39,764 bases of DNA from a virus: UHGV virus genome UHGV-0145637; one strand, written 5' to 3'. The position numbers and the translations under genes were made by a program. The first letter of the stretch is position 1. Each line of letters begins with the position of its first letter. Below the pieces are notes generated by a model. It worked only from the letters and a program-made list of their open reading frames with translations. It was not told the DNA's origin and did not search any database. This document shows positions 257 to 39,735 of the stretch, piece after piece.

Positions 257-787
257 CTAACCCGCTTTAGATTCTACCGGATTTGATTGCCTACTTGTCT
301 CGGTTTTTTCCAAAATCTCTCTGACGCAATCGTCTGGCATATCTACAATCATCAACGCAGCCAGGCGCTTCCTGCCTTCTAGTTGTAATAAATCTTGGTT
401 TTCTTTATTCAGCAGTGTCAGAACCGTCTCTACACCTTTGCGAGCAAGGAGATTGGTTAACTGTTCTCGTTCGTCTTTCGTAAGGAATGAAAGCATCTGT
501 GTAAGCTGATCTCCCTTATCACCAGAACAACCAAAATTACCATAAATACCAATATCGTTTGGTAATTCACCCTTGCCCTCTTTAAGCCACTCAAGACTAA
601 CGCCTTCACTTTCAGAAATTCGTATAAGGATACTTTCTCTGGGGGCTGGTTGTGTTTGTCCTCCCTTGAAATAGCTGTTTAATGTGTTGATATTGATTCC
701 CCACGCTCTGGCAGCTGCACTTCTTGAAGGGTAGCGCTTTGTAAGCATTCCAATACGTTCAATAACAGGTTCTTTTCCCTGCGACAT
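257..787 (-). CDS. Prophage repressor with HTH, in the position of Mu c
   Basis: Leftward ORF just left of ner. HTH-like stretch AAARAWGININTLNSYFKGG. Start taken at MSQGKEP with AAGAGG RBS upstream; the track ORF extends further but lacks an RBS. Confidence 0.6.
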   Translation of the reverse strand: MSQGKEPVIERIGMLTKRYPSRSAAARAWGININTLNSYFKGGQTQPAPRESILIRISESEGVSLEWLKEGKGELPNDIGIYGNFGCSGDKGDQLTQMLSFLTKDEREQLTNLLARKGVETVLTLLNKENQDLLQLEGRKRLAALMIVDMPDDCVREILEKTETSRQSNPVESKAG

Positions 788-977
788 AAAGATACCTCTT
801 GGTGCTTTTCTAAGGAAAGGTTTCTTTCTATTTATCCAATTGAAAAATAAGGATAAAAGCAAAAATTAGCCAAAATACCAAAAATACCTTGATTTGGTAT
901 TTTTGGTGATGCATTATTTACCCGTACAGATATCCGCACGAATATCCGCGCGGGTAACTTTTTAGAATAGAGGAAGT
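788..977. promoter_or_regulatory. Divergent repressor/early promoter-operator region
   Basis: AT-rich intergenic region with inverted repeat ACCAAAAATACC...GGTATTTTTGGT and tandem ATATCCGC repeats; position matches Mu Pe/Pc operators. Confidence 0.5.
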
Positions 978-1227: not shown

Positions 1228-3318
1228 ATGTATGTCATTGCAAAAGAACTGATTGGCGCGCCCGGAATGCCTGCTACAACAAAAGGTATTCGCCAGGCAT
1301 TACAACGTTACGTACAAGGGAAAAGCTGTTGTTCCCGTCGTCGCTCAGGCTCTAAAGCAACTGAATACAGCATCGACTGTTTACCTGAAGTGACGCAGCA
1401 GGCATTACGTGAACGCTACGCCCTGCAACTGATGACGCAAAAAGCCGATGAATCACCGGCTCCGGTGGTGACAAAGGCCAGACGCTCACCTGCCGTGGTT
1501 GATGCGGTGGAGGCATATCGCGGATCACCCCAACTGATGGTCGAACGCCTCAATGCCCTGACTGAAAACCAACGTAAAGTGGCAGAGGCACGAATAGCGA
1601 TCGTCAGCGAGGTGCTGAAAATCGCGCAACAACCCGGCTTTAGTTGCGCTAAGGCTATCCGGTTCCTCGTTAACAGCCTGGCACGATCACAACTGGACGA
1701 GCGCATTGTGGCAATGGTTGAGACGGCGAACGCCAAAAAGGGAAACAGCCGCGCGTTGAGTGAAATCACGCTGAAACGCTGGATTGCGGCCTTTAACAAG
1801 GCACAGAACGCCGCTGAACGCCTGCTTTTACTGGCACCGGGTAAACGCCAGGAAATAAAAGCCGAAGATATTAACTGGCTGCCCGAATTTCTGGCGCAGT
1901 ATCGCCAGTCAAACGGCCGACCAATGACCGAGGCTTACGAGGATTTTGTTGCTGAATGGCAGCACCGGCACGCTGATGAGCCTTATATGCTCGATATCAT
2001 GCCCTCTTATGACACCATTCGCCGCGCAATGAAGAAACTGCCGGAAGTGGTGAAACAAAAAGGCCGGGTAACTGGCAGTGAATACCGTCAGCTTGAGGGA
2101 TTCACGCGCCGCGACTGGTCCAGAATGCCGGTGAATTATGTCTGGATTGGTGACGGTCACGGCATGAAGCTGAAATGCGCGCACCCGGTTCACGGGCGGC
2201 CATTCGCACCGGAAGTGACCTTTGTTATCGACGGTGGCACGCGCTTTGTGGTGGGCTGGAGCCTTGACCTGGCTGAAAATGTTTTCGCCGTAGCCGGTGC
2301 CATACAGCACGGTATTCGCCATCATGGCAAACCGTTTCTGTATTACTCGGATAATGGCTCCGGGGAAACCGCCGACGTCCTGGATAAGGAGATTGTGGGG
2401 ATACTGCCACGACTGGGGATTAATCACCCGACAGGGATTGCCGGTAATCCGCAGGGACGGGGCATTATCGAACGGCTTAACCGCACATTACCGATGCGCA
2501 TAGCCCGTAAATACCGCACCTATTTCGGGAAAGGAGCAGATCGCGAGACGTTACGTAAAACCAACCGCGATTTACGCTCGGCATTCAGTGCCCTGCAACA
2601 GGGCAAACGGCTGAACGCCCGGCAGCAGTCAGCGATGCGTGATTTACCGTCCTGGTCTGAACTGATTGATGCCATTCGTGACGGTGTTGAGTGGTACAAC
2701 AACCGGCCGCACGATGAATTACCCATGAAGCCGAACGGTAAACATTACAGCCCGGCGGAGTTCAGAAAAAAACGCCTGGCGGAAGAGGACACGGAAATTG
2801 AATGGCTGTCCGATGTTGAACTGCGGGATATGTTCCGGCCGATGGTGGAGCGCCCTGTAAGACGCTGTGAAATACGCTGGCTGAATAATATTTACTACGC
2901 GCCCGAGCTGCGTGACGAGCATGGCCGTAAGGTACTTATCAGCTATGACATTCATGATGCCGAACGAATTACCGTGCGCCGCCCGGATGGCAGCGTGATT
3001 TGCGAGGCGGTATGGGACGGCAATAAACGCGAAGCCTTCCCTGTCAGCGCGGAATACTACAAACAGCAGCAGCGCCTTAAAGGCATGCGTAAACGCGCAG
3101 AGGAAAAAATCCGTGATGCCGAGGATGAGGTTGTCAACGTGCTGGAGCACAAGCCGCAGGAGCCCTGGCTGGAAAACATATACCGCCCTGTGGGTAATAC
3201 GGTGACCGTTCAGCAACCGGTCGCTGACGATGAACCTGATGAAGAATACGAGCGTAATTTCCAGCGGGGATTGCAACTGCTCGAAGCGAAATTAAAAGAA
3301 AGTGATCCGCTGGCCTGA
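1228..3318 (+). CDS. A: Mu-type DDE transposase A
   Basis: 696 aa (Mu A is 663 aa); position after ner and before the B ATPase; start overlaps ner stop. Confidence 0.85.
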   Translation: MYVIAKELIGAPGMPATTKGIRQALQRYVQGKSCCSRRRSGSKATEYSIDCLPEVTQQALRERYALQLMTQKADESPAPVVTKARRSPAVVDAVEAYRGSPQLMVERLNALTENQRKVAEARIAIVSEVLKIAQQPGFSCAKAIRFLVNSLARSQLDERIVAMVETANAKKGNSRALSEITLKRWIAAFNKAQNAAERLLLLAPGKRQEIKAEDINWLPEFLAQYRQSNGRPMTEAYEDFVAEWQHRHADEPYMLDIMPSYDTIRRAMKKLPEVVKQKGRVTGSEYRQLEGFTRRDWSRMPVNYVWIGDGHGMKLKCAHPVHGRPFAPEVTFVIDGGTRFVVGWSLDLAENVFAVAGAIQHGIRHHGKPFLYYSDNGSGETADVLDKEIVGILPRLGINHPTGIAGNPQGRGIIERLNRTLPMRIARKYRTYFGKGADRETLRKTNRDLRSAFSALQQGKRLNARQQSAMRDLPSWSELIDAIRDGVEWYNNRPHDELPMKPNGKHYSPAEFRKKRLAEEDTEIEWLSDVELRDMFRPMVERPVRRCEIRWLNNIYYAPELRDEHGRKVLISYDIHDAERITVRRPDGSVICEAVWDGNKREAFPVSAEYYKQQQRLKGMRKRAEEKIRDAEDEVVNVLEHKPQEPWLENIYRPVGNTVTVQQPVADDEPDEEYERNFQRGLQLLEAKLKESDPLA

Positions 3319-3400
3319 AATAAAAAAATAACCCGAGGGGTGACTCAGGTTATTTGAGGTTTCAGTCTCGGAGAATGCTGTCTCAAGCGAGGTGAATAAT

Positions 3401-4333
3401 ATGACCGATATTAACGATGTAATCAAGACCATTGATGAACTTATTGATGGCGGCGTACTGACGCAGTATGCCATCGCCAGAGAGGCGGGAATTTCCGACG
3501 GCACATTATCGGCTTTCCGTAAGGGAAAATATAAAGGCGATAACGCTGCTGTGGCTGCTTCCCTGCGCTCCTGGTATGAGAACTGGAATAAACAAAGCGC
3601 ACTGCCGGAACCGCCGCAGTTTGTGGAAACTCAGACAGTCCAGGAGCTGCGCGCACTGTTTCAGGCGGTTCGCCTGATGGGCTGTATTAACGTTATTGTG
3701 GGCGTACCGGGTGTGGGTAAAACGGCCACTGCCCGTAATTACTGCCAGGAGCAACCAAACACCTGGATGATCACCCTGTCACCCGCGCACTCCAGCGTCA
3801 CGGAGTGTCTGCTGGAGCTGGCCGATGCGCTGGGGATTGATTACACCCGCGCGAACAAAGGGGCATTATCCCGCGCCATCCGCCGTCGCCTGATGGGAAC
3901 GCGTGGACTGGTGATTGTGGATGAGGCGGATCATCTTGGTATTGACGGTCTGGAGCAACTCCGGGCAATTCAGGACGCCACGGGGATCGGGATGGTGCTT
4001 ATTGGTAACCCGCGCGGATTGTTTAAAGGTGGACGCCGCGCCTTTGATGATTTATCGCGCCTGTTCAGCCGTCTTGCCCGTACAAAACAACTTCGCAAGG
4101 CCAAAAAGGCGGATGTGCTGGCCATTGCCATGGCGTGGGGGATCAGTGGTGAGGCCGAGCTGGCCGTCATGCAGGCTATCGCTGAAAAGCCGGGAGCGTT
4201 ACGCGTTCTGACACATACGCTTAACCAGGCGTGGCTCACCGCCAGCGGTGAAGGCGCGGCGCTGACAGAAAAACATATTAATGCGGCCTTTAAAGAGGTT
4301 TATACCAACCCTGAATTACTCTCACAGGTGTGA
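3401..4333 (+). CDS. B: Transposition ATPase / target DNA activator B
   Basis: Walker A GVPGVGKT; N-terminal HTH; overall resemblance to MuB as recalled; GAGGTG RBS 7 nt before the ATG at 3401. Confidence 0.85.
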   Translation: MTDINDVIKTIDELIDGGVLTQYAIAREAGISDGTLSAFRKGKYKGDNAAVAASLRSWYENWNKQSALPEPPQFVETQTVQELRALFQAVRLMGCINVIVGVPGVGKTATARNYCQEQPNTWMITLSPAHSSVTECLLELADALGIDYTRANKGALSRAIRRRLMGTRGLVIVDEADHLGIDGLEQLRAIQDATGIGMVLIGNPRGLFKGGRRAFDDLSRLFSRLARTKQLRKAKKADVLAIAMAWGISGEAELAVMQAIAEKPGALRVLTHTLNQAWLTASGEGAALTEKHINAAFKEVYTNPELLSQV

Positions 4334-4335
4334 TT

Positions 4336-4557
4336 ATGGCGGTATTTAATATTCCTGATATTTACGGACGCTTTTACTTGGTTAATTTCGATAACGTGAA
4401 GGTGATTTCACTGGCCGAAAATAAAGAATGTGGCGATTTACTTTTTGAATTTAATGACCGCACACGAATGGTGATATCTGCCGGACTTGATCGCGAAGGT
4501 GCGACAGAAGTTTACAGCGGAATATGCCGTTCTGTTGGTGCGAAACAAGTCAGCTAA
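4336..4557 (+). CDS. Small early protein, 74 aa, in the position of Mu kil
   Basis: ORF directly after B, AGGTG RBS; function assigned by position only. Confidence 0.4.
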   Translation: MAVFNIPDIYGRFYLVNFDNVKVISLAENKECGDLLFEFNDRTRMVISAGLDREGATEVYSGICRSVGAKQVS

Positions 4558-4569
4558 ATGAGGTGTTAT

Positions 4570-4824
4570 ATGAATATGCAATCCTGCGGTAACAAAATGA
4601 ATTTATTCGACTCCCTGAACAGCGCGCGCCGTCTGACCGAACTTGCCGGTGCGGTACTGGAACGCAGTAAGCGCTATCCGCAACGTTTTGCACTGAAAAC
4701 CACGCCGCCGGTAGGCAACGTGCAGGGAACCGGTGAAATTGAAATCACCATACAGACCAACGGCCTGCGCCGCCGTGTGAAGGCCACCCGCATCAGCGGC
4801 TGCACGGTTTACTGGGAGGTGTGA
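4570..4824 (+). CDS. Hypothetical early protein
   Basis: ORF in early operon with RBS; no recognisable motif. Confidence 0.4.
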   Translation: MNMQSCGNKMNLFDSLNSARRLTELAGAVLERSKRYPQRFALKTTPPVGNVQGTGEIEITIQTNGLRRRVKATRISGCTVYWEV

Positions 4825-4825
4825 G

Positions 4826-5107
4826 GTGAAAAAAAATCTCATTGCATGGGCGTGGTCGAGTGGTCTTATTGAGTTTGGTTACGTCCTGCCGGAAGGTGCA
4901 TTGCCGATAGTTGCCGGAAAGCCTGCCACGGTACGGCATGTGATTGAGGTTATGGCGCGTCATGGACGTGATGAACAGGAGCAGTTACTGGTTCCGGGGA
5001 TACCGGAAGCGGTGACGGAGGAAGAAGCCTTTAATGCCATGATTCGGTTCTGCCGTGAGGTTAGACGCCGGGTCAGTTATCCAAACAGAACGAGGACCAG
5101 AGGATGA
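4826..5107 (+). CDS. Hypothetical early protein (GTG start)
   Basis: GGGAGGTG RBS before GTG; tightly packed with neighbours. Confidence 0.4.
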   Translation: MKKNLIAWAWSSGLIEFGYVLPEGALPIVAGKPATVRHVIEVMARHGRDEQEQLLVPGIPEAVTEEEAFNAMIRFCREVRRRVSYPNRTRTRG

Positions 5108-5685: not shown

Positions 5686-6216
5686 ATGGCTAAACGCGTT
5701 ACAAAATTAAAGGCCGCAGCCGAGGCGGCACCGCAGACCCGGGAAGAAGTCAGCCGTGATATCCGCACCCTGGGAGATATTCAGCGAGAGGCGCTGCGCC
5801 TGGAAACGGCGATGAATGACGAAGTGGCAGAAATCACCGCCCGTTATACGCCGCAGATTGAAAATCTTAAAAAGCAAATCAAAGTGCTTTTTAAAGGGAT
5901 TCAGGACTGGTGCAAAACCAACCGTGATGAGCTGACGAACGGCGGCAAAACCAAAACAGCCAATCTGACCACCGGAACGGTGTCATGGCGGCTGGGAACG
6001 CCATCATGCAGCGTCAGCCGTGATGTGGAAGGTGTGATTGAAATGCTGCGCCGTATGGGGCTTGAGCGTTTCATCCGCACGAAAGAGGAAGTGAACAAGG
6101 AAGCCGTCCTGGCGGAGCCGGATGCTGTGAAAGGCATTGCCGGTATCAAGGTGAATAAAGGCGCTGAAAGTTTTTATGTCGAGCCTTTTGAACAGGACGC
6201 CGGACTGAATAAATAA
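5686..6216 (+). CDS. gam: Gam-like host-nuclease inhibitor (DNA end-binding)
   Basis: 176 aa; conserved stretches RDELTNGGKTKTANLTTGTVSWR and LERFIRTKEEVNKEA match Mu Gam as recalled. Confidence 0.85.
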   Translation: MAKRVTKLKAAAEAAPQTREEVSRDIRTLGDIQREALRLETAMNDEVAEITARYTPQIENLKKQIKVLFKGIQDWCKTNRDELTNGGKTKTANLTTGTVSWRLGTPSCSVSRDVEGVIEMLRRMGLERFIRTKEEVNKEAVLAEPDAVKGIAGIKVNKGAESFYVEPFEQDAGLNK

Positions 6217-6361: not shown

Positions 6362-6895
6362 ATGATTGATGCAAAAGTGCTTGAAGGGGTTAAAAACTGG
6401 CTGTGTATTTATGGCCGCCTGACCTGCGGTGTACTGGCTGAAAAAATGAATATGCCGCCATCCTCCATGGTTTATTTTCTGCGTGATGCGGTTGATGCAG
6501 GCGTGCTGACGGAATGTAACGGTTTTTATGATATTCCGCGCCCCCGCCCGGTGCAGCCGGTTCGTCGCAAATGCAGCCAGGAATCTGCGGCTGATGATGT
6601 TCAGTGGTGCGGCTTCAGAAAATCCCTGCCATGGATTGAGGGGCATGATATTCCGTCGATGGCGTGGGAATTTGCTCAGGGCGTTCTGACCTGTGAAACC
6701 GTTTATGTGGTGGCTGAAGTTGATGAGCAGGCCATGAAAGAAGGCGTGCCCCAGTTTGTGATGGCGTATATCGACATACGCCTGGGCGTCATTATCTGCG
6801 GTTTAAGCGGCTGGAATATCACTGAACATGTTCTGCGCTACCTGATTGTTGACCGGACAGCAGCGCCTGCCGGGATATCTGCGGAGGTGGCGTAA
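6362..6895 (+). CDS. Hypothetical protein
   Basis: 177-aa ORF, co-directional; no motif recognised. Confidence 0.4.
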   Translation: MIDAKVLEGVKNWLCIYGRLTCGVLAEKMNMPPSSMVYFLRDAVDAGVLTECNGFYDIPRPRPVQPVRRKCSQESAADDVQWCGFRKSLPWIEGHDIPSMAWEFAQGVLTCETVYVVAEVDEQAMKEGVPQFVMAYIDIRLGVIICGLSGWNITEHVLRYLIVDRTAAPAGISAEVA

Positions 6896-7410
6896 TGTTC
6901 TTTAAAACATCAAACCCTTCCGCGCTGGCTGCGTGGCAAAAATACCAGCAGGACTGCCAGAAAGTTAAGGATGAGGCAAAACGCCTTGAGGCCGTGCTGA
7001 ATGTTGCGTGCCGGTCGGTATTTGTATCCGGTATCAGTGGATTTTACTTTAAGGGACTGCGTTTTACGGAGGACAAATATCCTTTTCATCGCGACTTATG
7101 GCGAAAACCGACTGCGTCGAATGGCTGGAGCTGCACACCGCGCACATCACGTATCCCTAAAACCCTGCGTGTTGCCTCTGATGAACTGAACAGTCTGTGG
7201 CGTGAATATTCGCCCGTCACGTATGCCAGAACCGATGCGCTGTTGTTCTGGTTGGGTATTGATTTCTCGGCAATCCTGTTTGGCCCTGTGAAGTGGTTCT
7301 GCGTTGACGATGTGATTTACCTTCAGTGCGGCGTAAAACCCGCAAAACAGAAAATGACCGAAATACTGTCTGATGAGTTTTATGCTGCTGAAAAGCGAGT
7401 CAGGGGGTGA
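6895..7410 (+). CDS. Hypothetical protein
   Basis: 171-aa ORF, start overlaps upstream stop. Confidence 0.4.
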   Translation: MFFKTSNPSALAAWQKYQQDCQKVKDEAKRLEAVLNVACRSVFVSGISGFYFKGLRFTEDKYPFHRDLWRKPTASNGWSCTPRTSRIPKTLRVASDELNSLWREYSPVTYARTDALLFWLGIDFSAILFGPVKWFCVDDVIYLQCGVKPAKQKMTEILSDEFYAAEKRVRG

Positions 7411-7413
7411 TGC

Positions 7414-7965
7414 ATGATGAAATTACAACCCATGGGACTAAAAGGTCGCGCCCCCGCTCATGTCCGTCCGTGGACACCTGAAGAAGATGCGCTGCTGATT
7501 GCGCTTTATTCATCCACCCCGGTTAAGGATATTGCTGCCAGAATAAAAAGAACTGTCTGGGCTGTATATAACCGGACTGGTGTATTGCGCAGTTCATACC
7601 CGGAGTTACTGAAATATAAACACCCAAGATTTACACCTGATGAAGATAAGTTTATTCGAAAAAATGCCAGAACAATGACCTGCCAGCAAATGGGAGAATA
7701 TCTCGGACGTAATAAAGATTCTGTCAGATGTCGGGCAGGAATGATTGGTGCTGGATTAACAAAGTGCGGAGAGTTACGCCCCGGCACGCACATATCTGAT
7801 GATGATGTACGTCTTATACGTGCGCTGCGTGATTCCGATTACCCACGCCGTCTGTCATTCCGGGAAATTGGCGAAAAGTTTGGAATATCTGAACATTCTG
7901 CTCACGCAGTTTATTACCGTCGCCGGACTGCCGAGGACGCTGTATTACGGGAGTTAACGCCATGA
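7414..7965 (+). CDS. Putative DNA-binding protein with two Myb/SANT-like repeats and a C-terminal HTH-like segment
   Basis: Repeats WTPEEDALLIALY...IAARIKRT and FTPDEDKFIRKNAR...LGRNKDSVRCR fit the Myb/SANT pattern. Confidence 0.45.
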   Translation: MMKLQPMGLKGRAPAHVRPWTPEEDALLIALYSSTPVKDIAARIKRTVWAVYNRTGVLRSSYPELLKYKHPRFTPDEDKFIRKNARTMTCQQMGEYLGRNKDSVRCRAGMIGAGLTKCGELRPGTHISDDDVRLIRALRDSDYPRRLSFREIGEKFGISEHSAHAVYYRRRTAEDAVLRELTP

Positions 7966-8291
7966 TAACGACCTTATTTGTTGAATCAGATGAACCTCTT
8001 GTGTGTGCCGCCGGAATGCCGCTCTGTGGCGGAACGCTGACCGGTGTTTATTTCGGGGATTTACGCGGTTATCCCTGGCATTCACTGAATGATGCTTTCC
8101 CACCTGATATGGAGGCTGCCGTGCTGATTGTTCAGTATGGTCACCGTCAGGAGCTGCGCATCGGCCATATGGGGTATGAAGGCTTTTTTGTTGATGAAGA
8201 AACCGGAGCCTGCCTTGAAGATGAAGACGGACAGGTGACGCACTGGTGTCATATTTCGGCTTTACCGGAATTACGGGAGGTGAATGCGTGA
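7962..8291 (+). CDS. Hypothetical protein
   Basis: 109-aa ORF, start overlaps upstream stop. Confidence 0.4.
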   Translation: MITTLFVESDEPLVCAAGMPLCGGTLTGVYFGDLRGYPWHSLNDAFPPDMEAAVLIVQYGHRQELRIGHMGYEGFFVDEETGACLEDEDGQVTHWCHISALPELREVNA

Positions 8292-8638
8292 GAAGTTATA
8301 TTGATAATGAAAAGCTGGAGACAATAAGCGACTGTCTTAGCTTGCTGGCAAAAATCAAAGAAACTATTGAAGAGATTAAATTTCAGCTTGAATACGCACC
8401 ATGTGGCGATGATGCATGGCGTAATGCTGCCAGAAAAGCACTGGCTGTCTTTCAGAAACAACGCCGGGCTGTTGAATACCGCCTTGCTGTATTGCGCCAG
8501 GAGGAAAAGGAAAGAAATATAAGACGTCATGAACGCGTTAATGATTTCCTTGTTCGTGAATTAAAAGAGCGCGTGCCGGAGTCGGTGTTTTTTGAATGTG
8601 AGGCTATAGCCCGTAGCAAAGCACTGGAAACAGATTAA
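8288..8638 (+). CDS. Hypothetical protein (GTG start)
   Basis: GGAGGTG RBS then GTG overlapping the upstream stop (GTGA); AT-rich relative to the backbone. Confidence 0.4.
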   Translation: MRSYIDNEKLETISDCLSLLAKIKETIEEIKFQLEYAPCGDDAWRNAARKALAVFQKQRRAVEYRLAVLRQEEKERNIRRHERVNDFLVRELKERVPESVFFECEAIARSKALETD

Positions 8639-8653
8639 GCAGGCAGGTGAATA

Positions 8654-8962
8654 ATGAGTATTGAATTAAGATCGTCTTATGAATATCGCAAAATCCTTAT
8701 CGCCGGAGGCATGAAACCGGAAGATGCAGAGAAATTCGTTTCTTTTATGGATAAAGAATGTGACAAGCGGGATATGCCAGAAATTATTATGGATGACATG
8801 ATTCTGGATTCAGCCGTGGCGTTAAGTCCGTTATGGATTGTGCATACTCTTGCGGAAATAGCTAAAAGAAGTGACAAGCAGGCGGCTGTCGCCGCCCTGC
8901 GATTACTGGCTGAATTAAGTTGTTCAGTCAATCCCAATACGTTCTTTGACGAACCTGGTTAA
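8654..8962 (+). CDS. Hypothetical protein
   Basis: 102-aa ORF; its 3' end overlaps the convergent antisense gene. Confidence 0.4.
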   Translation: MSIELRSSYEYRKILIAGGMKPEDAEKFVSFMDKECDKRDMPEIIMDDMILDSAVALSPLWIVHTLAEIAKRSDKQAAVAALRLLAELSCSVNPNTFFDEPG

Positions 8963-9334
8963 CATTGATTTGGTAACTTCTTTAATTAGATCAAATGGTG
9001 CGTCTGTAAACTCCTTTTTGATTCTTTCAAGGATTGGTTTTTTTCTCAGGGCGTTAGCTAAATCATGCCCCTGCTGGGTAAGCATAATGGGCGTGTTTCT
9101 GAAACCAACGCCCAGAGAATGGAAAAAGAAACCAATATATTTGGGTGTTTCTGACTGCATATCACCATTAACAATTGAGCCATTATCAGCGAGAAGCATA
9201 AGATGAAAAACTTTTTTATCCTTTTCCTCTCCTTCTGCCTCAGCCATGCCCAGATCCTGTAGTGTAAGGAAAGGTGTTTCAGCATCCTGAAAAGTTGTGA
9301 GAATACTTAATACTTCATCGTAATCTATTTTCAT
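8924..9334 (-). CDS. Hypothetical protein encoded antisense to the early operon (moron candidate)
   Basis: 136-aa ORF on the opposite strand, markedly AT-rich, acidic N-terminal half. Confidence 0.5.
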   Translation of the reverse strand: MKIDYDEVLSILTTFQDAETPFLTLQDLGMAEAEGEEKDKKVFHLMLLADNGSIVNGDMQSETPKYIGFFFHSLGVGFRNTPIMLTQQGHDLANALRKKPILERIKKEFTDAPFDLIKEVTKSMLTRFVKERIGID

Positions 9335-9398
9335 ATCGATACCTTTAGTTTTATCCGGGCGGCGTTGCCATGCCGCCTGTTGTTACGGAGACACGATA

Positions 9399-9911
9399 AT
9401 GAATCGCGCTTCCCTGATTACCTTAATACATGTCGCAAAACGCGATCTACAGCTTGACCATGAGACCTACACATCCGTACTACTGGCAGCCACCGGCAAA
9501 CCCAGTTGCCGGGATATGTCACCGGATGAGTTATCCCGCGTGCTGGATGTTTTCAAAAAACGCGGTTTTAAAGTGCGTCAGAAGCCGGTTAACCGGGCCT
9601 TAAAACCGGGTACGGTGACCGCCAAAATTCGCGCCATCTGGAAGGTGATGCACCGGCAGGGCTTTATCTCTGATGGCGGGGAAACAGCCCTTAACCGCTG
9701 GGTGAAATCGCAGACGGCCGCTCAGAACGGCGGCGAAGGTGTGGCTAACTGGCAGTGGCTGGAACAACACCCCGCGCTGGCCTCTGATGTGCTGGAGCGT
9801 CTCAAACGCTGGCACCGCCGCAAGATGCTGGATGTGCTGGGGATGCCAGCGCGTACAGTGATGAGTTATGAGCGCGTTTGCAGGCTGTATGAAGAATCCT
9901 CCCCCTTTTAA
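9399..9911 (+). CDS. gemA: GemA/gp16-like early regulatory protein
   Basis: 170 aa; N-terminal pattern LITLIHVAKRDLQLDHETYTSVLLAATGK typical of Mu gp16 family as recalled; position before the Mor/C-family gene. Confidence 0.65.
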   Translation: MNRASLITLIHVAKRDLQLDHETYTSVLLAATGKPSCRDMSPDELSRVLDVFKKRGFKVRQKPVNRALKPGTVTAKIRAIWKVMHRQGFISDGGETALNRWVKSQTAAQNGGEGVANWQWLEQHPALASDVLERLKRWHRRKMLDVLGMPARTVMSYERVCRLYEESSPF

Positions 9912-9919
9912 CCCCAAAC

Positions 9920-9946
9920 CCCGCCACAGCGCGGGATTTTTATTTT
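9920..9946 (+). terminator. Rho-independent terminator after gemA
   Basis: Stem CCCGC / GCGGG with 6-nt loop, followed by ATTTTTATTTT. Confidence 0.6.
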
Positions 9947-9981
9947 AAACTTGCCCTGTGTAATGATGACCGGAGGCGGGT

Positions 9982-10404
9982 ATGGCTGAAACACAGATGA
10001 GCATGTTTGGTGACAGCGAACAGCTGCACGCGCTGATTGACCGTCTGGATGATATTCCTGATGATGAGCTGAAAAAGAACTGGCCCGGCACGCTGCGGGA
10101 CCTGGTTGATGTGATCAGTGCTGAACTGCACCGTCAGGGGATTGAACCTGCTCAGGCGGGAATGCTTGCCCGTAAGGTTGCAGCCGCACAGGCCGGGTAC
10201 ATGGGCGGGCGTGGTTATTATCTCCCGGTCGGTGAATCCCTTTTCACCGAACTGCGCAATAATGAAATTTTTTCCCGCTGGAGCCAGGGCGAAAAAATTG
10301 AAACCCTGCGCCGCCACTACCAGATGTCAGAGACGCAGATTTACTCCGTTATCCGCAACCAGCGTCGCCTGCATCAGGAACGCACGCAGCCACGGCTTTT
10401 CTGA
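9982..10404 (+). CDS. Mor/C-family transcription activator (middle/late)
   Basis: 140 aa; C-terminal HTH-like region (...ETLRRHYQMSETQIYSVIRNQRRL) resembles the Mor/C family as recalled; only one family member in the window. Confidence 0.7.
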   Translation: MAETQMSMFGDSEQLHALIDRLDDIPDDELKKNWPGTLRDLVDVISAELHRQGIEPAQAGMLARKVAAAQAGYMGGRGYYLPVGESLFTELRNNEIFSRWSQGEKIETLRRHYQMSETQIYSVIRNQRRLHQERTQPRLF

Positions 10405-32930: not shown

Positions 32931-32954
32931 GAAGGCCTTCCGGCCTTCTTTATT
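32931..32954 (+). terminator. Rho-independent terminator after the tail fibre gene
   Basis: 7-bp stem GAAGGCC / GGCCTTC, loop TTCC, followed by TTTATT; overlaps the stop of the convergent tfa gene. Confidence 0.6.
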
Positions 32955-33474
32955 ACTGTGGCTGCTCAGGCCATTTAATGGCGTTAAATTCAGCTTCTGT
33001 TTTAATGGCGGGTAGTTCCATTTTCTTCACCTGACTGATGTATGCCATCCATTGGGTAAGTGCTGCTCTGTCTTCATCGCTGATGGTGCCCAGTTGTAGC
33101 TCCGTTCTCCAGTCATTAATTTTTTCATATGCCTGATTAAGATATGACTGGCGCATTGCTTCCAGTTTTCTTGCGTAGTTAACCGGAATACGGGAGATTA
33201 TGCCATTATCAAACTTCCAGTTTCCTGAAATATCCGTGCCTTCAGGGAGTTCATCGACCTCAACCACAGAAAACCCCGCAGGATACAGCGCCGAGGCGTC
33301 CTGTGATATTGAGCAGATAACGCCGCTGTCAGGTGTTATGCAAAGTTTATATTTTTTGGTGAATAATGGCAGGGATTCGTAGAAATCCTTACCATCTTCA
33401 CTCTGGAAATACTGAACATTATTACCATATGGCATATTTTCAGGATAATAACGGGTTATATTTTTTAGTTCCAT
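32953..33474 (-). CDS. Tail fibre assembly chaperone (Tfa / U-like), inside the invertible segment
   Basis: 173 aa on the minus strand with AGGAGG RBS, directly downstream of the alternative fibre C-terminus; C-terminal ...AIKWPEQPQ resembles Tfa endings. Confidence 0.7.
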   Translation of the reverse strand: MELKNITRYYPENMPYGNNVQYFQSEDGKDFYESLPLFTKKYKLCITPDSGVICSISQDASALYPAGFSVVEVDELPEGTDISGNWKFDNGIISRIPVNYARKLEAMRQSYLNQAYEKINDWRTELQLGTISDEDRAALTQWMAYISQVKKMELPAIKTEAEFNAIKWPEQPQ

Positions 33475-33964: not shown

Positions 33965-34537
33965 ATGCTGATTGGGTATATCAGGGTGTCAACAAATGAC
34001 CAGAATACGGCGCTACAAAGAAATGCGCTGGAATGTGCAGGATGTGAGCTGTTTTTCGAAGACAGAATAAGCGGTAAGACAAGGGAGCGTCCCGGACTTA
34101 AACGCGCATTAAAGCGACTCCGGCCAGGGGATACCCTGCTGGTCTGGAAACTGGATCGCCTTGGACGCAGTATGCAGCACCTTGTCCTTTTAACAGAAGA
34201 ACTCCGGCAACGCGGCGTTAACTTCCGCAGCATTACGGACAATATTGATACATCCACTCCCATGGGACGTTTCTTTTTCCATATAATGGGCGCGCTGGCG
34301 GAAATGGAGCGGGAACTCATTATTGAACGTACACGCGCGGGTCTTGCTGCTGCCCGTGCTCAGGGGCGTCATGGCGGCAGACCTCAGAAACTGACAGAGA
34401 AAGAGCGGGAGCAAATCGCCCGTTTGCTGGCTAATGGCGAGTCCCGTAAACAAATCGCACTGATATTTGATATTGGCCTTTCCACCCTTTATCGTTATTT
34501 TCCTGCCTCACCAGCTCCGTCACCAAAAGTACCGTGA
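33965..34537 (+). CDS. gin: Serine recombinase DNA invertase (Gin/Hin/Cin/Pin family)
   Basis: MLIGYIRVSTNDQNTALQRNAL... with catalytic-serine motif and C-terminal HTH; near-colinear with Mu Gin as recalled. Confidence 0.9.
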   Translation: MLIGYIRVSTNDQNTALQRNALECAGCELFFEDRISGKTRERPGLKRALKRLRPGDTLLVWKLDRLGRSMQHLVLLTEELRQRGVNFRSITDNIDTSTPMGRFFFHIMGALAEMERELIIERTRAGLAAARAQGRHGGRPQKLTEKEREQIARLLANGESRKQIALIFDIGLSTLYRYFPASPAPSPKVP

Positions 34538-37964: not shown

Positions 37965-38011
37965 GATTGAGTGATAAAGATATCAACAACAAAGCAGGAG
38001 GTTATGCGGCC

Positions 38012-38212
38012 ATGTATCGAAACATACGGTGCCGACATTGTAACAAGCTACTGGCACGAGCCAGCTTCAGTTATCTGGAAGTTAAATGTCCGCGCTGTAA
38101 AACCCTCAATCAAATCACATCTCAGAGCGCCACAGAGCACCCCACATACACAAGGAAATCCTGTCGTGGGGAACAGAAAGCAAGTTACATCCCGTATCAT
38201 CAGCACGCCTGA
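38012..38212 (+). CDS. com: Com zinc-finger translational activator of mom
   Basis: [10 protein letters not shown]...EVKCPRCK matches the Mu Com zinc finger as recalled (IRCKNCNKLL...IRCPRCK); GCAGGAGG RBS; start at the internal Met of the track ORF. Confidence 0.8.
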
Positions 38213-38903
38213 ACTTATTCACTATAACGACAATATCGTCGGTTATGGCTCCCGTGAGTTACGGGTTGAGACAATAAGTTGCTGGCTGGCCCGGCTGGTC
38301 GTCGTCAATAAACATTACAGCCATCGTTTCGTAAATAATTCCTACCTTCATCTGGGCATATTTTCAGAACGGGAGCTGGTTGGCGTAATGCAATGGGGTT
38401 ATGCCCTTAATCCAAACAATGGTGCACGCGTCGTAACTGGCACGCAGAACCGCGAATATATGGAGCTTAACCGGTTATGGCTGCATGACTGTATGCCGAG
38501 AAACTCCGAATCAAGGGCAATCAGTTACGCGCTCAAACTAATCAGACAACTTTATCCGCAGGTGCAGTGGGTTCAGTCGTTTGCAGATGAGCGTTGTGGC
38601 TGTCTTGGTGTCGTGTACCAGGCAAGCAATTTTGATTATGTAGGCAGTCATGAAACAACATTCTATGAACTTGATGGCGAGTGGTATCACGAGATTTGCA
38701 AGAATGCAATCAAACGAGGAGGACAGCGAGGTGAACATCTGCGGGCTAATATCGACAGAGCCAGTGTTCATAAATTCCGTCAGTTTCGTTACATCCGGTT
38801 TCTGGACAAGAGAGCCAGAAAACGCCTTAACACAAAGCTATTCAAAGTCCAGCCTTACCCAAAACCACAAACAGTTAAAACTGGTTTGAAAGAGAGTGAA
38901 TGA
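38166..38903 (+). CDS. mom: Mom-like DNA modification protein
   Basis: 246-aa frame beginning inside the 3' end of com (GTG at 38166 with AGGAAA upstream), as in Mu; assigned by position and size only. Confidence 0.55.
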
Positions 38904-38944
38904 ACGCTTAAAAACTCATTCTAAAACTCAAAAGAAAAGCGCCG

Positions 38945-39036
38945 ATTTAGTATCAAATAAGTTGCGTATCGGCGTTTTTCAGCGGTATCAAATGAAATGC
39001 AAATCGGTATCAAAAAAATCGCCGCGCTATAATACA
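38945..39036. repeat. Right-end region with three GTATCAAA repeats (attR-like) and putative terminus ...TAATACA
   Basis: GTATCAAA at 38950, 38985 and 39007; reverse complement of the terminus begins TGTATTATAGCG. Confidence 0.5.
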
Positions 39037-39735
39037 TGCGCTTGCTTGCGCACTCCAGCGCCAGCTGTTTGATGTCGTAGTTCGGATCGCCTTTTTTATG
39101 GTTCAGACCATCGCGAATCGCAAACACCAGTTTCGGGAACACCGCAGTTTTACGGTTTTTACCGAGGCCTGCGATACGGTTACGCAGGATAGATTCCTGA
39201 ATCAGGCGCGACTCCCAGCTGGTGCCCAGACCAAAACCAAAGGTTACAAACGGCGTCTGACCGTTGGCGGTGTGCAGGGTGTTTACTTCGTACTCCAGCG
39301 ACTGGAAGGCATCGTAGCACTCTTTAATGGTACGAGAGTTAGCGTAGCCTTCGGCGTCCGGGATGTTCCACTCTTCTGCGGTCTTGCGATGTTTGTTGTA
39401 GCTGGCGGTAACAAACGGCGCCAGCACTTCATCGATACGGTTAATGGTGGTGCCGCCATAAATATGGCTGGCGACCTGAGCAATAATCTGCGCAGTTACC
39501 GCGGTTGCCGTAGAGATCGACTTCGGCGGTTCAATCTCGGCGTTCCCCATCTTAAAGCCCTGGGTCAGCATGCCTTTCAGGTCGATCAACATGCAGTTGA
39601 ACATCGGGAAGAACGGCGAGTAATCGAGATCGTGATAGTGAATATCGCCACGCTCATGTGCCTGCACCACGTCACGCGGCAGCAGGTGCTGACGTGCATA
39701 GTGTTTAGCCACGATCCCGGCCAGCAGGTCGCGCT
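39037..39735 (-). CDS. nrdD: Host anaerobic ribonucleoside-triphosphate reductase, 5'-partial and interrupted at the phage junction
   Basis: Minus-strand translation AKHYARQHLLPRDVVQAHERGDIHYHDLDYSPFFPMFNCMLIDLKG... resembles enterobacterial NrdD as recalled; the frame runs out of the contig and degenerates on entering phage DNA after ...ECASKRMY. Confidence 0.6.

Follow-up and report, generated by a model that had tools for sequence, protein, structure and literature searches.

What is a single gene doing head-on against the early operon of a Mu-like prophage? The question is raised by UHGV-0145637, a viral genome of 39,764 nucleotides (hereafter the window, i.e., the whole stretch of DNA that was analyzed), which is a complete Mu-like prophage. 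All other credible genes from ner (978) to gemA and the Mor-family gene (10404) are on the plus strand, and one gene of 136 amino acids (aa) just upstream of gemA is on the minus strand (Table 1). An earlier note on this DNA, made from the letters alone, had singled out this gene and supposed that it could be expressed in the lysogen, as genes for lysogenic conversion or defense often are. We found that the gene is real, antisense, and accessory, not part of the core and dispensable for the phage, and sequence comparisons identify it as a DUF2513 cassette in the slot that gp15 occupies in Mu-type prophages. The existence of this annotated antisense gene, in exactly this slot of phage Mu, had been missed.

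The basic description of the locus in the earlier note was borne out. The gene runs against an otherwise unidirectional early operon, and it shares exactly 39 bp (8924-8962) with the plus-strand gene 8654..8962. Its G+C content (GC) is 38.7%, compared with 52.5% in its flanks, 50.2% in the early region, and 53.6% in the whole window. The product matches PHROG 585 over residues 1 to 134 (E = 7e-18) and is named in RefSeq as a "DUF2513 domain-containing protein." When 1.8 billion representative proteins were searched exhaustively, 114 representative relatives of essentially equal length were retrieved; the Pfam DUF2513 model was matched by 45 of 51 aligned full-length homologs, and most matches of a profile search carried the precomputed PF10711 domain. 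Comparisons among homologs gave nonsynonymous differences per site (pN) of 0.16 to 0.36 against synonymous ones (pS) of 0.69 to 0.94, and a ratio of nonsynonymous to synonymous substitution rates (dN/dS) of 0.09 to 0.21 where dS was unsaturated. The open reading frame (ORF) is conserved, the antisense strand is the coding strand, and the selection acting on the protein is clearly purifying. On this same selection pattern, we rejected the forward ORF at 8946..9206 of the window as the coding frame. A forward ORF of Klebsiella phage Kp4866-3 (locus L099, 6566..7015) was rejected for its selection pattern and because PHROG 585 is matched by the antisense frame and no PHROG at all by the forward one. 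This plus-strand ORF of 149 aa covers the whole antisense DUF2513 gene and the hairpin described below and is probably spurious; its ATGA start and stop couplings to both neighboring forward genes are striking.

The comparison of related prophages of Escherichia coli confirmed the accessory status of the gene. Homology to the common Mu-like prophages of this species breaks off inside the PHROG 1988 gene (8898) and restarts at codon 10 of gemA (9426). Complete E. coli records with the backbone around 8200-8898 number 230, and the antisense gene is present in six of them, plus one from which it has been removed by IS5; further losses are represented by an internal deletion of the gene in an IMG/VR contig and by a frameshifted variant. 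The slot of the common type (approximately 215 genomes) is filled by 584 bp with two forward genes, of 65 aa (PHROG 2358) and 98 aa (PHROG 17269); here gemA is translationally coupled to the upstream forward genes, and the hairpin is absent. The segment 8899..9425 is therefore one of several interchangeable cassettes occupying a slot just upstream of gemA, in the distal part of the early operon in Mu-type prophages of enterobacteria; this slot varies and is not conserved core in all Mu-like genomes. The block 8288-9334, which had been proposed as an AT-rich unit, is indeed AT-rich (41.4% GC; 0.4% of the 1047-bp windows are as AT-rich, the lower ones being at the left, repressor, end), but it is not a single unit, since 8288..8898 is conserved backbone and the variable part is 8899..9425. 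A search for flanking repeats as insertion scars gave only short repeats at chance level.

Mu gp15 (Mup15, NP_050619.1; PHROG 8747) is annotated on the minus strand of the phage genome at 7896..8162, directly upstream of gemA, codes for 88 aa, and overlaps gp14 by 62 bp, compared with the 39 bp by which the window gene overlaps the preceding forward gene. The annotated antisense gene gp16 of SfMu has the same arrangement as in Mu. In D108 (NC_013594.1, locus L127), we found an unannotated antisense ORF of 119 aa (MAEQEQHTVSDDEQ...) on the minus strand at 905-1260 of the locus, within the 376-bp annotation gap between gp14 and gemA; identical copies of it are present in two IMG/VR contigs, and relatives of 83 to 89 aa in others. 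About 20 Mu-like IMG/VR contigs contain antisense ORFs of 76 to 119 aa that start 9 to 33 nt from the hairpin. Like the window gene, the genes of Mu, SfMu, and D108 are small, lie on the minus strand directly upstream of gemA, overlap the forward gene before them at its 3' end, and are accompanied by a GC hairpin before the gemA ribosome-binding site. They differ from it in protein size (76 to 119 aa in the gp15 type, 133 to 140 aa in DUF2513) and in the sequence of the hairpin, which is GGCGGC-N8-GCCGCC in the window and the 20-mer GGCGGTGTTGCAGCACCGCC in Mu. The gp15-type proteins can be aligned with each other, but no homology to DUF2513 was detected by BLAST or by hhalign (probability of 0.4 to 1.1%), and the sole feature common to both is a motif of 17 residues with a hydrophobic helix and a turn. 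Among 78 IMG/VR gemA loci, which are not independent and some of which, left unassigned, may hold more antisense ORFs, 26 had a recognized antisense occupant, 13 of them DUF2513 and 13 gp15-like. The more distant Mu-like phages HS6, martha, PhiKM, MuM16-2, and BcepMu have no antisense gene upstream of gemA. Considering that Mu has the annotated antisense gp15 in the slot, the arrangement is an old Mu-type feature and not a peculiarity of the window prophage. We found no functional studies of DUF2513, YjcQ, or Mu gp15 in the literature.

DUF2513 genes lie antisense beside gemA in at least eight Mu-like lineages. Immediately before gemA, and antisense to it, Mu-like prophages of Citrobacter braakii, Edwardsiella anguillarum, and Pantoea rodasii encode relatives 45 to 55% identical to the window protein, as do several metagenomic contigs (two lineages) and IMG/VR contigs. 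Klebsiella phage Kp4866-3 has a 31%-identical relative in the same antisense position. In two Kluyvera prophages (L115, 4001-4423; L116, 725-1147), a relative 30 to 32% identical is antisense in the gap between gemA and mor, with approximately 570 bp from the start of DUF2513 to the start of mor. Even the 39-bp tail-to-tail overlap recurs in two of the loci (L101 and L102), in which the PHROG 1988 protein has a similar tail, ending in F(D/K)E(L/P)(G/S) before the stop. By these sequence comparisons, the antisense arrangement is old, recurrent, and shared across genera, neither a recent acquisition nor a one-off insertion. In all 14 contexts compared, the GC of the DUF2513 gene was 4 to 14 points below that of its flanks. 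In non-Mu phages (80 IMG/VR loci), the gene is co-oriented with both neighbors in 51 loci and antisense to both in 5, and it usually has the Rz lysis gene on one side and the gene for the small terminase subunit or an HNH gene on the other. In some non-Mu prophages (L021, L022, L028 at 3082-4788, and L014 at 6879-7844), DUF2513 is found near genes of the abortive-infection type, with AIPR immediately upstream of it or Abi_2 some 1.5 kb downstream.

The window gene shares with lambdoid morons, and with the "regions of genomic plasticity" of Pseudomonas Mu-like phages (PMC4378225), the condition of a single gene of low GC located between otherwise adjacent genes and provided with a terminator-like hairpin. 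However, its cassette replaces another module (527 bp versus 584 bp), whereas morons add DNA, and its antisense arrangement is old and shared across genera, unlike a recent acquisition. Lambdoid DUF2513 genes occupy the classic moron gap between Rz and terminase and have a predicted promoter of their own, whereas the window copy has no detectable promoter.

The hairpin that separates the start codon of the antisense gene from the gemA ribosome-binding site has a predicted folding energy of -17.6 kcal/mol in the window and is followed on the plus strand by TGTTGTT and then by GGAG-N9-ATG, the start of gemA. Equivalent hairpins are present in Mu (L125, 2694-2713), SfMu (L126, 2985-3004), D108 (1262-1281), Kp4866-3 (6973-6992), L102, and L104. 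In Mu, SfMu, and D108, GGCGGTGTTGCAGCACCGCC is followed by a pyrimidine tract and then by GGAGGTACG..ATG of gemA; the 20-mer is identical in these three phages, Kp4866-3, and L102, and the window and L104 have divergent equivalents. We found the exact 20-mer in 25 IMG/VR contigs, of which around 20 are Mu-like. Among the 78 gemA loci, the hairpin accompanies 23 of the 26 antisense occupants and was found in only 2 of the 52 loci without one. The tract that follows it on the plus strand is T8 in Citrobacter and CTTTCTTTT in L102, and it is weak in the window and in Mu (CCCTTTCC). Only two GGCGG..CCGCC dyads occur in the window, and they flank the antisense gene; a relaxed version of the pattern was no more common than in shuffled sequences. 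The hairpin bounds the antisense slot, and its candidate roles are those of an attenuator, an RNA stabilizer, a protein-binding site, or a recombination boundary.

With regard to expression signals, the window gene has a Shine-Dalgarno-like sequence, and its homologs have AAAGGA or GGAGA in the same place. The terminator-like element past its stop overlies the codons for DKQAAVAAL in the opposite gene and is clearer in homologs (in L102 and L110, an 8-bp stem followed by UUUUUAUCAU). The dyad at 8879-8899 is encoded by the AAVAA motif and is also found in prophages without the antisense gene, so the terminator is suggestive only and the protein motif could by itself explain it. A Mor/C-type activator-dependent promoter making use of the dyad was rejected on geometry: promoters of the Mor type require a dyad centered at -43.5 (PMC4390567), and the transcription start would fall inside either coding sequence. 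An Rfam search of the window region and one lambdoid locus found nothing.

Lambdoid DUF2513 genes have upstream regions in the top 3 to 9% of background in a position-weight-matrix promoter scan. In one group (L006 at 5936-6000, L012 at 4938-5000, L045, L056, L086 to L090, and L098), a conserved 21-bp palindrome, CAGGCATTCACTGAGTGCCTG, abuts the promoter-like sequence TGTGATAATGCTAAATTA (top 5 to 9% of background), and next comes a hairpin in the 5' untranslated region, in which the Shine-Dalgarno sequence forms the 3' arm. Its two arms covary between loci (ATTCCCT/AGGGAAT, TAACCCCT/AGGGGTTA, and TCCTTCA/TGAAGGA), which suggests translational control. In a second architecture (L020, L025, L031, L038, L041 to L043, L058, and L094), located about 22 nt before the DUF2513 start, a -10 element (TATAAA or TATAGT) precedes a perfect palindrome, (C)GTGACATGTCAC(G), and then the Shine-Dalgarno sequence. 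This palindrome is also found away from the DUF2513 gene in L024, L055, and L097 and may therefore belong to another regulator.

The antisense protein is predicted to consist of a small winged-helix domain followed by a helical tail (AlphaFold2 model from a 75-sequence alignment, predicted local distance difference test score of 94.5). We found no enzymatic, membrane, toxin, or effector domain in its 136 aa, and no NCBIfam or further Pfam match in it or in the other slot occupants. The fold is likewise winged-helix in DNA-binding proteins of the MarR, PadR, HxlR, and TubR types, but no MarR, PadR, or HxlR model of Pfam or NCBIfam matched. Sequence searches of the PDB were empty, a fold search of BFVD gave no informative match, and the longer homologs offered no domain-fusion hints, the one designated P0090 being a spurious repeat protein.

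Taken together, these data fit an interchangeable antisense winged-helix cassette expressed in the lysogen, the product of which would be a regulatory or accessory binder, and we consider this explanation reasonably likely. In it, a single gene with its own ribosome-binding site and terminator-like hairpin faces the early operon, whose transcription from the early promoter (Pe) would cross it head-on, in antisense, on its way to gemA and mor. Since Pe transcription has to traverse the gene to reach them, the gene would most likely be expressed in the lysogen, where Pe is repressed, and upon induction it would be shut down by transcriptional interference. The product would most likely be a dimeric winged-helix protein binding DNA or a partner protein, regulatory or accessory rather than an enzyme or a toxin. 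Dyads flank the window gene and palindromes precede the lambdoid members, and the GC-rich dyads would be the candidate binding targets; as the second one stands directly before the gemA ribosome-binding site, a protein bound to it could affect how much read-through reaches gemA and mor. That the protein is specifically a DNA-binding regulator is possible, but we hold it with less than even confidence.

Several observations weigh against this explanation. The window protein is acidic (isoelectric point [pI] of 5.2), as is the DUF2513 family (median pI of 5.25 and net charge of about -5), which is unusual for a DNA binder, and R84 is the sole conserved basic residue in the winged-helix part. The match of the window protein to Pfam DUF2513 (PF10711; residues 2 to 111, 23.6 bits, E = 6.6e-5) is below the gathering threshold of 29.6 bits. 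In the lambdoid subgroups, the upstream palindromes differ while the consensus of the recognition helix is nearly the same, and the Mu-type 20-mer is identical whatever protein fills the slot, making it an unlikely operator of the variable protein; an autoregulatory operator, as a candidate, is weakened by both. The promoter prediction that the note had called for also went against it: no sigma-70 promoter was found upstream of the window gene by consensus scan, where activator-dependent or atypical promoters are possible, the best score of the position-weight-matrix scan was equaled by 42% of background windows, and the other Mu-type DUF2513 copies have no upstream sigma-70 promoter above background. 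Furthermore, the hairpin is only 23 nt away from the start codon, so that any promoter would be situated within the hairpin or past it, in the 5' end of gemA. With no promoter above background, it is from orientation alone that we infer expression in the lysogen.

The idea that the gene is expressed in the lysogen as a defense or superinfection-exclusion factor guarding the host from other phages, close to what had been supposed before, seems improbable to us, and no evidence for a defense function has emerged so far. The gene does have the traits of a moron, being AT-rich, present or absent between conserved neighbors, and antisense to a repressed operon, and other DUF2513 members occupy known moron positions, some of them beside AIPR or Abi_2 genes. 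There is also the precedent of the Pseudomonas transposable phage Fc02 (PMC9936078), in which the lysogen transcribes olg1/sie1 and gene 10 from the strand facing the early operon, and these genes bring about the exclusion of other phages. Both resemble the window gene in lying on the strand opposite to the early lytic operon and overlapping an early gene; however, the Fc02 genes adjoin the repressor gene and olg1/sie1 is cotranscribed with it, whereas the window gene is at the far end of the operon, and the proteins are unrelated. Apart from this different location, PADLOC-DB 2.0 gave no match at E ≤ 0.1 for the window protein, two homologs, Mu gp15, or the D108 ORF, and neither the domain content of so small a protein nor the promoter scans favor a defense gene.

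The acidity of the family and its few conserved basic residues would suit a protein of the lytic phase, acting in host takeover or antidefense through protein contacts as an acidic winged-helix decoy and expressed after induction from a weak or activator-dependent leftward promoter. Lambdoid DUF2513 genes, which are usually co-oriented with the late operon and lie in it between the genes for Rz and the small terminase subunit, point the same way, and the semi-essential early region of Mu is otherwise rich in small host-directed proteins (kil, gam, and gemA). Nevertheless, we give this alternative little probability, considering that the gene is antisense in every Mu-like context and would collide head-on with heavy Pe transcription exactly in the lytic phase, that in neither direction does the dyad have the geometry of a Mor-type promoter, and that no partner gene covarying with it was found. 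The succession of unrelated proteins in a slot of constant orientation, with the hairpin kept beside the gemA ribosome-binding site, could also mean that the coding gene is incidental and that gemA and mor are controlled in cis by a leftward RNA or by the hairpin, through antisense control or attenuation of Pe read-through. The pyrimidine or T tract after the plus-strand hairpin would fit this, and so would the forward-gene prophages that lack the hairpin and couple gemA to the upstream gene. However, the tract is weak in precisely the window and Mu, no promoter was found for the leftward RNA, and purifying selection on the DUF2513 ORF, together with its confident fold, indicates that the protein itself matters, making a purely cis-acting role very unlikely.

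The remaining genes of the window follow a Mu-like order from the repressor side to mom (Table 1), and the truncated nrdD at the right end implies that the prophage is inserted in this host gene. A terminator-like site (9920-9935, CCCGCCACAGCGCGGG followed by ATTTTTATTT) is present in the gap between gemA and the Mor-family gene (9912-9981). From gemA to the lysozyme gene, we saw a single gene of the Mor/C family, whereas Mu carries mor and C; with only one and no separate C, the middle/late cascade of the window phage may be wired differently. The query region matched three places in E. coli JE86-ST05 (NZ_AP022815.1) and two in JE86-ST02 (NZ_AP022811.1), so the prophage may be multicopy, as would be expected if it is transposition competent. 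Besides these two strains, E. coli JKHS016 and TOE17 carry this prophage.

Table 1. Positions of the antisense gene, its cassette, and other features in the window
Feature	Position	Strand	Remarks
Repressor-side ORF	257..862	minus	Left end of window
ner	978 (start of plus-strand run)	plus	
Transposase A	1228..3318		
Transposase B	3392..4333		
gam, gp11-like, gp12-like, Myb-like regulator gene, three small genes			In this order after transposase B, before gemA
PHROG 6158 gene	8288..8638	plus	AT-rich conserved backbone, outside the cassette
PHROG 1988 gene	8654..8962	plus	Backbone; last 21 codons cassette derived, crossing the 3' end of the antisense gene
Terminator-like hairpin (8879-8899) with U-rich tail	8862..8899	minus	About 25 nt past the antisense stop
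Variable cassette, 527 bp	8899..9425		Homology to common E. coli Mu-like prophages ends at 8898 and restarts at 9426
DUF2513/PHROG 585 gene (predicted winged helix), 136 aa, ATG start	8924..9334	minus	RefSeq WP_000687317.1
Shine-Dalgarno-like AAAGG	9342..9346	minus	7 nt before the ATG at 9334; read from the sequence
GC-rich hairpin/dyad, core GGCGGC-N8-GCCGCC (9358-9377)	9356..9379		Between the antisense start codon and the gemA ribosome-binding site
gemA (gp16 family)	9399..9911	plus	First 9 codons within the swapped segment
Mor-family activator gene	9982..10404	plus	Followed by lysozyme and morphogenesis genes
Tail-fiber assembly gene	32953..33474	minus	Right end
Gin-type invertase	33965..34537		Right end
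SASA carbohydrate-esterase/DUF6645 protein, 684 aa	34623..36677		Right end
Mom	37971..38903		Right end
Truncated host nrdD	38921..39712	minus	Right end

The present result mainly corrects the first reading of the locus, which turns out to hold an alternative cassette of an old arrangement. It also brings the widespread DUF2513/PHROG 585 family and the never-characterized gene 15 of Mu into one comparative frame: the Mu early operon ends in a fixed antisense slot, the occupants of which turn over while the orientation and the boundary hairpin persist. One could go further and regard the slot upstream of gemA as a dedicated, ancient locus for antisense cargo, bounded by the hairpin, with lysogen-expressed occupants that influence the switch between lysis and lysogeny (for instance, as gates on the read-through from Pe to gemA and mor) or act against competing phages, although we think this unlikely to hold as a whole. 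If the occupants are lysogen-expressed regulators or exclusion factors, the slot would represent a new point of control, or of cargo, in a model phage, and a dedicated cargo locus would provide the first function for Mu gp15 and for the DUF2513 family.

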